DNA from: a phage
NCBI GenBank assembly: GCA_024682255.1
Contig: GCA_024682255.1_4716.1
Direction: 5' to 3' (one strand)
Length of the DNA stretch: 64,000 nucleotides
Position numbers and translations under genes: made by a program. Position 1 is the first letter of the stretch; every line of letters starts with the position of its first letter. Of this stretch, positions 53,003 through 56,270 are shown in pieces. Below the pieces are notes generated by a model that worked only from the letters and a program-made list of their open reading frames with translations, ran no database searches and had not been told where the DNA came from.

Positions 53003-53536
53003 TTAAGCTCCTTTCTGTTTTACGGACGATGTTAACCAGGACGATCTTACCGTGAAACCCTCAGACTCATAGAACGCCTGGGCTTCAGCGTTATCGGCAC
53101 GAACATCCAGGCCAATAGAATGCCCACCGCACTGGTAAGCGATGTTACGTGCTTCGTTCATCAAGGCGTGGCCGATACCACGTCCGCGATATTCGGGTTT
53201 TACAACAATCGATGTAACGTCATGAATGCCCATATGGCTCTCTATATTCACTTCCAAGAGGCCTACCGGCATCGAAGCGATGGCGTCGATCATAACGACC
53301 AACTTTGCAGTGTCCGGTAAACGCTTTTCTAATTCTAAGGCATCGTACTCGCGTTTTAAATCGGGGATATTCTCAAACATAAACGTGGTAGCCCAAGCCT
53401 CTGATTCTACGTCGTCGAGAATACGGTACAGCTCACGAATCTGTCGTTTATGTGGGTAAAGGTGTGGATCGGCGGCCGTTGAGGCGATAACGCAATAGAA
53501 CGGCCGTTCATTAATAACTACTGTTTTGATGCTCAT
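53003..53536 (-). CDS. GNAT-family N-acetyltransferase (177 aa)
   Basis: Acetyl-CoA-binding motif region VVKPEYRGRGIGHALMNEA; ATG overlaps upstream TGA. Confidence 0.65.
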   Translation of the reverse strand: MSIKTVVINERPFYCVIASTAADPHLYPHKRQIRELYRILDDVESEAWATTFMFENIPDLKREYDALELEKRLPDTAKLVVMIDAIASMPVGLLEVNIESHMGIHDVTSIVVKPEYRGRGIGHALMNEARNIAYQCGGHSIGLDVRADNAEAQAFYESEGFTVRSSWLTSSVKQKGA

Positions 53537-54039
53537 GCTAAAATTCCCTCATTACCTAACAGTCGATTACGATGACGTCGGTACATTTGACAAAGTGTTG
53601 TGATTTGATAATGTTTGTTGTAACGCACCTCGATACGTTTTTGCACCTCTTTCCATGGAAGTTTATCGTATTGCCGATAACGATGGATTTCATTTAACAT
53701 ACGAAGACGAGTAGGATCGGTGTTCTTTATCGTCGTGAGCTTCACGCGTTGGTATCCGCGCTGTAGTCCCGATTCGGAATACGTGACATCAAACTCATCC
53801 TGAATGATGGTAATGATCTCCCGCCACCGACGGTTCTCGCCATCACGTAAATGGACAACCCGCGATAAGATATCGTTCCGATTACGATGACTCAGTTTGA
53901 TGTTAAGCATTGAAGCAATCGCGCTAATGGCTCTCTGACTCCGTCCTAACGCTTCACCTATTTCTTTCGATGTCATGACGCCCGCGTTTCGGCGTATGAA
54001 TGCGATTTCGGTTGTTGTGTATTCTTTACCTGCTGCCAT
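53533..54039 (-). CDS. HTH-domain protein, member 6 of a tandem paralog array
   Basis: YTTTEIAFIRRNAGVMTSKEIGEALGRSQRAISAIASML helix-turn-helix-like unit plus conserved C-terminal region; 67-nt overlap with the upstream gene. Confidence 0.5.
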   Translation of the reverse strand: MAAGKEYTTTEIAFIRRNAGVMTSKEIGEALGRSQRAISAIASMLNIKLSHRNRNDILSRVVHLRDGENRRWREIITIIQDEFDVTYSESGLQRGYQRVKLTTIKNTDPTRLRMLNEIHRYRQYDKLPWKEVQKRIEVRYNKHYQITTLCQMYRRHRNRLLGNEGILA

Positions 54040-54503
54040 TTCTTACCACGTGTGTTATAATAGTAACGCTGACAAAGATGTGTGTGACGATACTCCCGTT
54101 TGAACTCGACGCTAATGATGCGAGCAACTTCTCTCCAGTTAACCCCTTCACGTCGAAGTGCTGTAATACGGTCTGAAATTTTGCACCATTCATCTGGGTC
54201 GTATCGACGTAGCTTAAGTCGTCGTATTACGGAGGCGACGCTCGCTCTCGATCGGCCAAGATGATTTGACAGCTGTTTAACCGAGTATCTGTGGATATTG
54301 TCACGAATATAGGAAATCTCGTTGTTCGTATATGCCTCATTGGTTCTCGACGAAGGGAACAGCATATACAACTTATTCTTAATCGCGCTTTCTGTGCGTT
54401 GAAATACAGCAGCCAGCTCACTAACCGGTGGTCTGGGTATCTGGTCCGCGTAATTCTCGAGGCGTGAGAGTTCCTCATCTGTCCAGCGACGGTATTTGCG
54501 CAT
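53973..54503 (-). CDS. double-HTH protein, member 5 of the array
   Basis: Start set to ATG (MRKYRRWTDEEL...) with AAGGAG upstream; two HTH-like units. Confidence 0.55.
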   Translation of the reverse strand: MRKYRRWTDEELSRLENYADQIPRPPVSELAAVFQRTESAIKNKLYMLFPSSRTNEAYTNNEISYIRDNIHRYSVKQLSNHLGRSRASVASVIRRLKLRRYDPDEWCKISDRITALRREGVNWREVARIISVEFKREYRHTHLCQRYYYNTRGKKWQQVKNTQQPKSHSYAETRAS

Positions 54504-54978
54504 AGGCAGCTCCTTTGTTTTTCGTGTAGTAACACCAACGTTGATACAACGCATGTTTATTCGTTGTAATCCCAAATTTAACAACAACGTCGTAGGTAAT
54601 AACATCCCAATTTTGGGTGACGTTAAGTCGTTCCGCGATAAACGCGATAATCGCTTCCCGTTCTTGCTTGGTGAGCGCACGACGAATTCCGTTAAGCCGT
54701 ATAAACTGACGAACCGAGTCATACGAACGGTTTAAATCGTACGCAATCTCCCGCAGCGATTTTTGTCTGATTACCGACTTGATGTATGCGCGTTCTTCTT
54801 CCGTGTACGGCCGATGCTTTTGACGTTGACGTATTCCCAAACGCCCCAGACGCGCGTCGACGCTGGCGCGTGTTCGTCCTGTCCGTTGCGCAATTTCATC
54901 AATCGTCATCGACGTGTTCAAATACAGATGCGTAACATCTTTCAGCTCGTCGTCACGCCACGGTTGAGATCGTCCCAT
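54475..54978 (-). CDS. double-HTH protein, member 4 of the array
   Basis: WRDDELKDVTHLYLNTSMTIDEIAQRTGRTRASVDARL and YTEEERAYIKSVIRQKSLREIAYDLNRSYDSVRQFI units; GAGGGA upstream. Confidence 0.6.
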   Translation of the reverse strand: MGRSQPWRDDELKDVTHLYLNTSMTIDEIAQRTGRTRASVDARLGRLGIRQRQKHRPYTEEERAYIKSVIRQKSLREIAYDLNRSYDSVRQFIRLNGIRRALTKQEREAIIAFIAERLNVTQNWDVITYDVVVKFGITTNKHALYQRWCYYTKNKGAAYAQIPSLDR

Positions 54979-55456
54979 CTTGTATCCCTCTTTTCTTTCT
55001 ATGATGCCACCAACGCTGATAGACAGCTTGCTTCGTACGTGTTATACCGAAATGCTCATTAACCCGTTCAGCAATGTAGTACCAATCCTGTGTTTCTTCC
55101 AACAATCTATCAACGAAGGCTATGAAGATCTTAGTATCAGCCTCGCTTAACCGCTTAAAACCATGACGGTGTGCAATCGTTCTAATACTGTTTGGATCCC
55201 TGTTTAAATCGCGTGCGAGTTGTTTGTAACTTTTGTGTTTGCAGTGCACTCTGATATATTCCAGCTCACCGACGCTGAAACGTTTATGGGGTTTACGACG
55301 TTCAACATTTAAGTATACCAACCTCGATTTAATTGCACCGTACGTTGTTTCCATGATTTCTGCGATTTCACGGATTTTTAATTTCGGGTGACGATAGTAC
55401 AATTCCAGCAACTGTTCATCATCCTTACGATTCCATCGTCGTACTGGAGGTTTCAC
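54953..55456 (-). CDS. double-HTH protein, member 3 of the array
   Basis: GTG start with AGGAG upstream; WNRKDDEQLLELYY...IREIAEIMETTYGAIKSRL and second unit. Confidence 0.55.
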   Translation of the reverse strand: MKPPVRRWNRKDDEQLLELYYRHPKLKIREIAEIMETTYGAIKSRLVYLNVERRKPHKRFSVGELEYIRVHCKHKSYKQLARDLNRDPNSIRTIAHRHGFKRLSEADTKIFIAFVDRLLEETQDWYYIAERVNEHFGITRTKQAVYQRWWHHRKKRGIQDGTISTVA

Positions 55457-55469
55457 AACGAGATTTCTC

Positions 55470-55937
55470 CTATTCTACGCGTTTTAATGCTTGAGTGTAG
55501 TAGAGGCTATGAACACCGCTTAACGTGTAATGGGTGTTAAATTCATTATTGATGATGTTCCGTATTCTCTCCCAGGTGTTATTCTCTTTTCTAAGGGCGT
55601 GTATTCGATAATAAATCATCTCTCGACGTTGCGCTTTGCATGCAACAATACCGTAACGGTAGCAGAGTTTAGCGATTGCGTCCACGCTACGATTGAACAT
55701 CGCTGCAGCTTCTTTTACGCTATGCGTCTTAAGATAATCAGCTAACATCACACGTTCTTCGAAACAACAATAGCGGTGACGCGACATGAGTTTCCAGCGC
55801 TTGCGATTGCGGTTAATTCGACCTTGAACAGAGCCTTCTGTTCGGTCAAGCCGTGCCGCAATCTCTTGCATCGGGATACCGTTTCGGTACAGGGTAATCA
55901 ATATCGCGTCTTCTTCGGGTGTCCAGTCCTTGACCAT
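55470..55937 (-). CDS. double-HTH protein, member 2 of the array
   Basis: WTPEEDAILITLYRNGIPMQEIAARLDRTEGSVQGRI and second unit; ATG start. Confidence 0.6.
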   Translation of the reverse strand: MVKDWTPEEDAILITLYRNGIPMQEIAARLDRTEGSVQGRINRNRKRWKLMSRHRYCCFEERVMLADYLKTHSVKEAAAMFNRSVDAIAKLCYRYGIVACKAQRREMIYYRIHALRKENNTWERIRNIINNEFNTHYTLSGVHSLYYTQALKRVE

Positions 55938-55949
55938 AGCGCCACCCCA

Positions 55950-56270
55950 TCAACGTCTTACTTTAAGCGGTATTCTGTTTCGAAAACAATAACACCGGAT
56001 GGCGTGTACGCTACGATTCATTATTTCAGCGATTTCATTTAGGCTATGCTTCTTTGCAAGCATAGCAACCCGGGTTCTTTCTTCTGGTGTGTAAACTCCC
56101 CCACGAGGAGGTAGGTCACCTCGTCGTTTCCTCAACTTGAGGTAACGTGCGCGAATAGAACACGGTGTCCGATCCATGCAACGCGCTATTTCTTTATAGC
56201 TCGCTTTTGGTGATGTGCTAAGAATAAGTAGCAATGCTTCGTCTTCTTTATCCGTCCAACGTTTACCCAT
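55950..56270 (-). CDS. double-HTH protein, member 1 of the array (106 aa)
   Basis: [13 protein letters not shown]...[22 protein letters not shown] and [35 protein letters not shown]; AAGGAG upstream; overlaps ligase 3' end by 8 nt. Confidence 0.6.

Follow-up and report, generated by a model that had tools for sequence, protein, structure and literature searches.

Six D5-like helix-turn-helix genes with variable alleles beside the DNA ligase gene of a Goslar-like phage

D5 of phage T5 (T5.118) is described, in the available excerpt of its database record, as a DNA-binding protein that is required for DNA replication and late transcription and is involved in expression shut-off. According to a 2026 preprint (PMC13405049), D5 is also the natural trigger of a type IX retron, acting via its helix-turn-helix (HTH) fold, and phages that escape this defence carry D5 mutations; an AlphaFold3 model in the same work places the HTH fold on the retron msdDNA, the retron complex is remodelled in vitro, and D5 expressed alone is toxic to E. 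coli. Here we characterize six consecutive paralogous genes, termed W1–W6, that occupy positions 53533-56270 on the minus strand of a 64,000-nucleotide stretch of phage DNA (contig GCA_024682255.1_4716.1; the whole stretch is called the window below). All six encode chains of HTH units of the D5-like family and lie directly behind the gene for an NAD-dependent DNA ligase. Tentatively, and with a probability that we put at roughly 45%, we read W1–W6 as D5-like DNA-binding proteins that would act on the phage genome in replication or as a transcription switch.

T5 D5 and the array share one repeated unit (W-T-x-E-E ... EIA ... R-[ST]-x-x-S-[IV]), lack an enzymatic domain and follow an NAD ligase. 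They differ in that D5 is one near-neutral protein of 255 amino acids (aa; isoelectric point, pI, 6.3) encoded by a single-copy gene, whereas the array consists of six genes of 106-176 aa with a pI of ~10, an extra unit termed C and four hypervariable positions. In T5, ligA/ligB immediately precede D5, and the adjacency recurs in ~900 T5-like records, an estimate based on 30 rows taken along the whole ranking, the majority of which list the ligase; across these records the conservation of D5 exceeds even that of LigB. The ligase/W1 and ligB/D5 junctions are built alike, each with an 8-nt overlap that follows the pattern ATGNNTAA; in the window the ligase stop and the W1 start overlap as ATGGGTAA (56263-56270), and the T5 counterpart reads ATGTCTAA (12311-12318 of locus L007). 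The window and T5 ligases are themselves not specially close (31% identity). When T5 genes near the ligase were tested for the HTH units (T5.108, D2, T5.112, D3 and T5.115 besides D5), only D5 gave a clear match and D2 a marginal one.

Six intact genes between ligase and acetyltransferase

Between positions 53000 and 58400 the window is 93% identical in DNA to Escherichia phage vB_EcoM_Goslar, whose database record gives a 237-kb genome in the genus Goslarvirus and which the literature describes as a nucleus-forming chimallivirus infecting E. coli. W1–W6 are the equivalents of Goslar gp119 down to gp114; RefSeq lists gp114-gp118 as hypothetical proteins and gp119 as a 'SANT/Myb domain-containing protein'. 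The block comprises the following genes, where A, B, C and C' are the three-helix units described in the next section and E-values, unless marked otherwise, refer to PHROG 323.

56263..58332, minus strand: NAD-dependent DNA ligase, 689 aa, directly upstream of the array; annotated as such in Goslar (gp121), with Pfam ligase domains recorded for orthologs
55950..56270, minus strand: W1, 106 aa, gp119 equivalent; units A+B; pI 10.5; E 7e-18; hypervariable position 1
55470..55937, minus strand: W2, 155 aa, gp118 equivalent; units A+B+C; pI 9.7; E 5.5e-18; mostly conserved
54953..55456, minus strand: W3, 167 aa, GTG start, gp117 equivalent; units A+B+C; pI 10.1; E 2.7e-14; hypervariable position 3
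54475..54978, minus strand: W4, 167 aa, gp116 equivalent; units A+B+C; pI 10.0; E 4e-18; hypervariable position 4
53973..54503, minus strand: W5, 176 aa, gp115 equivalent; units A+B+C and a tail of ~20 aa; pI 10.2; E 1.9e-18 (residues 2-158); hypervariable position 5
53533..54039, minus strand: W6, 168 aa, gp114 equivalent; units B+C+C', without unit A; pI 10.3; E 8.4e-10; conserved array member
53003..53536, minus strand: GNAT acetyltransferase, 177 aa, directly downstream; Pfam Acetyltransf_1 E 5.5e-15; conserved right-hand border of the variable block

A preliminary description made from the sequence had proposed six consecutive paralogous minus-strand genes at these positions, and open reading frames (ORFs), profile searches, BLASTP and PHROG all agree with it. 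Of the window's 715 stop-to-stop ORFs with a length of 40 aa or more, only six matched an array profile (E 3e-38 to 5e-78), the next ORF scoring E 0.5, and pairwise BLASTP among the paralogs reached E 2e-26. The ratio of nonsynonymous to synonymous divergence (dN/dS), computed against Goslar and two more distant relatives (loci L005 and L003), was 0.00-0.31 for W1–W6 and 0.00-0.08 for W6, so that every one of the genes is under purifying selection. The start codons are individual to each gene and in most cases preceded by a Shine-Dalgarno sequence, and all three reading frames are used, with only W1 and W2 in a common frame. Furthermore, the gene boundaries are unchanged across 11 distinct Goslar-like loci selected for comparison (the window, Goslar, L017, L020, L022, L024, L005, L003, L018, L015 and L013). 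The genes had also been called overlapping, which holds for W3/W4 (26 nt), W4/W5 (29 nt) and W5/W6 (67 nt), as it does for the W6/GNAT border (4 nt), and fails for W1/W2 and W2/W3, which are separated by 12-13 nt.

These observations bear on the idea that the six genes are fragments of one degraded gene for a long poly-HTH protein. In its favour, the best profile matches outside the Goslar-like phages are single proteins of 300-900 aa that carry 4-9 consecutive A+B double units and no other domain, and the array, at 939 aa in total, is of similar size. The idea is effectively refuted by the individual start codons with their mostly present Shine-Dalgarno sequences, the use of three frames (common to W1/W2 only), the boundaries kept in 11 loci and the purifying selection on every gene; moreover, the repeated module is A-B-C here and (A-B)n in the long proteins. 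W1–W6 are thus separate diverged paralogs, as first described.

Two gene starts required correction. The ORF list gives W5 as 249 aa; its actual start is the ATG at 54503, which is preceded by AAGGAG and matches the start of Goslar gp115. For W6, the RefSeq version of Goslar gp114 (L001 3534-3977) has 147 aa, but all relatives share a start 21 codons upstream that yields 168 aa, and every locus keeps the N-terminus, EYTTTEIAFIRR or, in L015 and L013, QY.TTEIA.IRR. As the 21 residues left out by RefSeq recur in every relative and make up helix 1 of the first HTH unit, the 168-aa form is correct and the Goslar gp114 start probably misannotated. Scans for sigma-70-type promoters and terminators within the block found no clear excess over chance. 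Given the tight co-directional packing behind the NAD-dependent ligase, the array genes are probably made together with DNA-metabolism genes.

Unit architecture and family relations

Alignment and hhalign resolve two motif-bearing units, A (W-[TRN]-x-[ED]-[ED] ... EIA ... R-T-x-x-S-[IV]-x-x-R) and B (Y-T-x-E-E ... [EQ]-IA ... N-R-S-x-x-[SA]-[IV]), which are homologous to each other (hhalign probability 96%, E 4e-9), followed by a unit C of ~54 aa with the pattern ...I..I..L....W..I...I...F......L.QRY, for which no sequence relation to A or B is detectable. There are 17 three-helix units in total, two in W1 and three in each of W2–W5 and W6, the array profile matching unit C twice in W6 (the second match being C'). 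The proteins had been described as 'double-HTH' with a conserved aromatic C-terminal region. That count fits only W1 (A+B), since W2–W5 are A+B+C and W6 is B+C+C', and the supposed C-terminal region is the third three-helix unit C, which W1 lacks and W6 carries twice. The absence of C from position 1 is peculiar to the window/Goslar allele, the position-1 gene of L003, L018, L015 and L013 being 152-157 aa long and including unit C.

Structure prediction supports the proposed HTH fold. The AlphaFold2 model of W4 (pLDDT 82.7, pTM 0.55) folds every unit (A at residues ~5-50, B at ~56-100, C at ~101-160) as a three-helix bundle, and that of W6 (pLDDT 77.9, pTM 0.44) has nine helices forming three units; the models contain three-helix HTH bundles only, which can be superposed on Myb repeats. 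Their low pTM is compatible with flexible linkers between the modelled bundles. Net charge across W1–W6 is +11 to +17 (pI 9.7-10.5). Neighbours are mostly each other's closest paralogs (W1–W2, BLASTP E 1e-13; W3–W4, 2e-26 at 33% identity; W6 with W5 as its best match, 6e-10), the pattern expected from successive tandem duplication of an A-B-C gene, although W5 scores slightly better against W3 than against W6.

Within the known families, all of W1–W6 find their most specific assignment by profile comparison in PHROG 323 ('transcriptional regulator, D5-like'), with E-values between 8e-10 and 2e-18. The array profile finds T5 D5 at E 1e-9 to 1e-10 (one-target or 13-protein search), with A+B aligned to D5 residues 72-170 and a further unit to residues 206-234, and BLASTP of array proteins against D5 gives 7e-4 at best; homology to D5 is real but remote. 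Pfam, PHROG and NCBIfam scans revealed no catalytic domain in W1–W6, and PADLOC and NCBIfam scans of the array proteins gave nothing above cut-off.

The fold is Myb/homeodomain-like and closest to the DNA-binding domain of GcrA. Among PDB sequences, the array profile matched the two-HTH protein 2lvs (E 3.5e-9, spanning A+B) and then c-Myb (2e-4), and 2lvs is likewise the top Foldseek match among solved structures. This entry represents the CRISPR-repeat-binding proteins Cbp1/Cbp2, which resemble the array proteins in being small and basic with two or three linked homeodomain-like HTH units but are archaeal, whereas the window genes have no CRISPR context; membership in that family was rejected, as the NCBIfam model HTH_Cbp1 (NF040595) scores 19.7 bits (W3) and 17.4 bits (W4) against a cut-off of 140. 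Myb/SANT repeat proteins (c-Myb R1R2R3, plant R2R3 MYB, Reb1, SNAPc4) are also tandem chains of three-helix units, and a conserved tryptophan opens helix 1 of unit A, yet the array units keep only one of the three typical spaced tryptophans. The Pfam Myb profiles PF00249 and PF13921 give 34.0 and 33.5 bits for W1 (cut-offs 24.4 and 22.9) and 15-21 bits, under cut-off, for W2–W6. GcrA has a single HTH unit, unlike the chains of units found here, and the array proteins are without its C-terminal domain, the part of GcrA that binds sigma-70. GcrA membership (PF07750; PDB 5yiu) was rejected at E 0.06-0.07 and 14 bits against 26.9, with only the N-terminal 40-60 profile positions aligning. A link to D12-class adenine methyltransferases, prompted by the GcrA similarity, was dropped as well, the enzyme being present in some relatives and missing from the window.

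The units had been likened to sigma-70 region 4 or to Myb/SANT. At the level of the unit, Sigma70_r4_2 exceeds its Pfam cut-off of 25.7 bits in W2 (34.4), W3 (27.8) and W4 (26.7), and Myb exceeds its own in W1 only. The proteins are not sigma factors, however: there is no Sigma70_r2 match, regions 2 and 3 are missing, and the NCBIfam sigma models, which require 43-323 bits, give no more than 17-22. Numerous other generic HTH families fall just under their Pfam cut-offs for W1–W6. The preliminary description had also suggested host-takeover factors, and we considered in this context whether the proteins might bind host DNA or, through the sigma region 4-like units, host RNA polymerase, and so shut off or redirect host transcription. 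Consistent with such host takeover, apart from the Sigma70_r4_2 scores, are the toxicity of T5 D5 when expressed alone in E. coli (PMC13405049) and an XRE-family protein of chimallivirus RAY that decorates host DNA (10.1101/2023.02.24.529968). The region 4 match, however, is a generic HTH signal in sequences that also score as Myb, HTH_23 and HTH_38, with sigma region 2 missing and all NCBIfam sigma cut-offs far off. Chimalliviruses, moreover, use their own RNA polymerases for transcription, and the genes sit in a DNA-metabolism block and are probably not among the earliest expressed, so that we regard host takeover as quite unlikely.

To place the array among more distant proteins, a full hidden Markov model (HMM) scan covered 1.84 billion representative proteins and returned 14,904 matches at E <= 1e-3, of which 137 reached E <= 1e-30. 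Ten of the long poly-HTH proteins described above were checked, and all ten match PHROG 323 (E 1e-45 to 1e-117). The same units occur in annotated phages as 'D5-like' regulators of Listeria phages, as 'GcrA family' regulators of streptococcal phages and as paired small genes in Dibbivirus, and they also stand at the N-terminus of phage HNH, Vsr-type and other endonucleases. Because the units recur across phage regulators and endonuclease N-termini, the HTH domain is a common, promiscuous phage DNA-binding module. Among the relatives surveyed, six separate A-B-C genes in a row were found in Goslar-like phages only. Searches with tblastn and W5 against 50,697 phage records hit Goslar alone, and word-seeded protein searches hit only Goslar-like phages, the remote relatives being reached solely by the full HMM scan.

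The endonuclease matches raise the alternative that W1–W6 derive from homing endonucleases or other selfish elements as orphaned DNA-binding modules, which piled up at a recombination hotspot and do little for the phage. The same HTH units are N-terminal in endonucleases of PHROG 1891, 8446 and 7545, in a 'DNA mismatch endonuclease' of Acinetobacter phage ME3 and in the 'Endonuclease' and 'Endonuclease I' of BcepSauron, and the locus is variable, with a 235-aa gene (gp120) present or absent beside the array. We nonetheless consider this origin very unlikely: neither the six genes nor any allele in the 11 loci contains a nuclease domain or remnant, every gene keeps its positional orthologs in all loci, dN/dS is 0.00-0.31, and the repeated A-B-C architecture points to gene duplication rather than to independent insertions. 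Homing-endonuclease membership proper was rejected, the matches to these three PHROG families being limited to the N-terminal HTH part and Pfam finding no HNH or other nuclease domain.

Allele structure across Goslar-like loci

The order ligase, array, GNAT is maintained in all 11 loci, apart from the extra gene gp120 in some, and ten of them hold six array genes; L013 and its near-duplicate L014 hold five, W2 being missing. Positional orthology of the array genes is retained throughout. Compared with the window, the ligase protein is 85-98% identical, GNAT 82-98% and W6 88-100%; a separate comparison across all loci put W6 at 86-95%, and W2 is 88-94% identical in most loci (71-72% in L018). 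The remaining four positions behave otherwise. In L018, L015 and L013, identity to the window falls to 49-57% for W1, 46-50% for W3, 37-39% for W4 and 47-49% for W5; between allele types it is 42-50% for W3 and 45-49% for W5, and position 1 has four allele types that are 47-56% identical to one another. At the DNA level, identity drops from ~90% to ~50-58% exactly at the ligase/W1 and W5/W6 borders, and in L015 W2 forms an island of 90% DNA identity within the diverged stretch. W6 and mostly W2 thus behave like core genes, and W1, W3, W4 and W5 like exchangeable cassettes.

All four variable genes have saturated synonymous sites (proportion of synonymous differences, pS, 0.70-0.83), against a synonymous divergence (dS) of 0.28-0.57 in the flanks, and their alleles are therefore old lineages joined by recombination and not merely fast-evolving proteins. 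Their combinations show that alleles reassort between phages: L003 has a position-1 allele in common with L018 (95%), window-type genes at positions 2 and 5 (86% at position 5) and moderately diverged ones at positions 3 and 4, and L015 combines its own position-1 allele with a window-type W2 and L018-type positions 3-5. The alleles differ from one another along all helices. The notion that their divergence is concentrated in recognition helices was discarded, the third (recognition-type) helices being slightly more conserved than the remainder (59-63% in A and B).

Such alleles invite an explanation by conflict, in which W1, W3, W4 and W5 face host immune sensors, defence nucleic acids or the DNA of co-infecting phages, with frequency-dependent selection keeping deep alleles and recombination moving them around. 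Four positions with 37-57% identical alleles and saturated synonymous sites beside flanks of dS 0.28-0.57, the reassortment in L003 (L018 at position 1, window at position 5) and L015 (window W2, L018 at positions 3-5), the varying copy number (five genes in L013/L014) and the finding that the prototype, T5 D5, uses its HTH fold to trigger a type IX retron and is mutated in escapers (PMC13405049) would all fit. An arms race of this kind is nevertheless unlikely in our estimation, as selection within allele classes is purifying, the divergence is even over all helices instead of lying on one surface, PADLOC matches are no higher than noise and T5 D5 is not hypervariable. Moreover, a non-HTH gene close by has similarly deep alleles, so that the region may simply be recombination-prone.

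The gene in question (52573-53001 on the minus strand; 142 aa, gp112 equivalent) is the second one downstream of the array. Its protein identity is 60-63% in five of the ten other loci, with dS saturated or nearly so, and its neighbours are at 80-99%. At the opposite edge of the variable block, gp120 (235 aa, L001 6276-6983 in Goslar) shows a clean presence/absence polymorphism between ligase and W1, being present in Goslar, L005, L006 and L024 and missing from the window, L017, L020, L022, L003, L013, L015 and L018; it has no Pfam or PHROG match.

Proposed action on the phage genome

Returning to the reading that W1–W6 are D5-like proteins acting on the phage genome, we envisage that the genes would be expressed with those for DNA metabolism and that each chain of two or three units with basic linkers would set successive recognition helices into the major groove of duplex DNA, as Cbp-type, Myb R2R3 and paired-domain proteins do. 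The chain could thereby read or coat extended duplex DNA and, in the manner of T5 D5, an early DNA-binding protein needed for replication and for the switch from early to late transcription, would bind the replicating phage genome and modulate its replication or transcription programme. In this reading the array itself was built by tandem duplication of an A-B-C gene, and recombination among phages with ~90% identical flanks reshuffles its diverged alleles.

Several points weigh against this reading. T5 D5, with a pI of 6.3, is nearly neutral and comes from a single-copy core gene that evolves slowly, whereas four array members are strongly basic and hypervariable; because of this mismatch, the functional analogy to D5 may hold for W6 alone or for none. 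Regulators that act at many sites should not tolerate replacement by 37-50% identical versions in genomes that are otherwise ~90% identical, except where they bind non-specifically or keep their contact residues. A search of the window for repeated k-mers as candidate binding sites found none, and no paper mentioning Goslar gp114-gp119 was found. Finally, in five loci scanned around ligases related to that of the window, no D5-like genes adjoin the ligase in Erwinia phage pEa_SNUABM_54, Ralstonia phage FLC1-1B, Noxifer, EL or one bacterial record, and as the ligase neighbourhoods of these four other jumbo phages are without them, the link to the ligase is not general.

A further possibility, which draws on both the D5-like reading and the variable alleles, is a modular specificity system in which essential D5-like DNA binding would come from W6, and usually W2. 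W1, W3, W4 and W5 would be exchangeable cassettes with deeply diverged alleles kept by balancing selection, either via host immunity that senses HTH proteins of this family, in the way a type IX retron senses T5 D5, or via compatibility between co-infecting nucleus-forming phages. We hold this to be doubtful; if true, it would be the first population-level allele shuffling built on DNA-binding proteins in a virulent jumbo phage.

The arrangement had been called unrecognised in any described phage system. The protein family proves to be known (PHROG 323, T5 D5-like), and the six-gene array was not found described in the literature: full-text searches of the Goslar and chimallivirus literature returned no mention of gp114-gp119, of a six-gene array or of an HTH/DNA-binding regulator or chromatin-like protein, and the terms transcription factor, helix-turn-helix, DNA-binding protein and histone are all missing from a 2025 review of nucleus-forming phages. 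The six-gene array and its cassette-like allele shuffling therefore appear to be undescribed. The D5-like block beside the ligase offers concrete candidates for DNA-binding regulators or chromatin-like proteins of chimalliviruses. Since the mechanism of D5 is poorly understood although D5 is essential in T5, the split into conserved and hypervariable paralogs may help to separate a core function from interaction with hosts or competitors. In addition, with reshuffling that stops sharply at gene edges, the locus lends itself as a small natural experiment on how recombination and selection act in populations of jumbo phages.

Some further loci were noted in the course of the comparison. In Erwinia phage pEa_SNUABM_54, whose ligase is 39% identical to that of the window, five small genes of 108-192 aa directly follow the ligase (L009 7959-10406); they are array-like in size and have no HTH-profile match. 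The record labelled 'Acinetobacter phage MD-2021a' (CAKLQF020000011.1, L008) carries smc, zipA, ligA, bfr, otsA/B and bioH/A near its ligase and resembles a contig of a bacterial chromosome more than a phage. At 59304-60030 of the window, on the minus strand, are two genes of 106 and 138 aa; the same spot in L002-L006, L013-L015, L022 and L023 is occupied by a D12-class N6-adenine methyltransferase (PF02086) and a 97-aa gene. L003 and L015 have an intact methyltransferase (274-275 aa), and in the other carriers it is split or truncated, which looks like decay in progress. Pantoea phage AAM37 has two adjacent HTH genes of the same superfamily just upstream of its holin and endolysin genes (L025 3989-4631; gp79, 101 aa, and gp80, 116 aa), so that this unrelated phage of 50 kb has a counterpart of the array with two genes.

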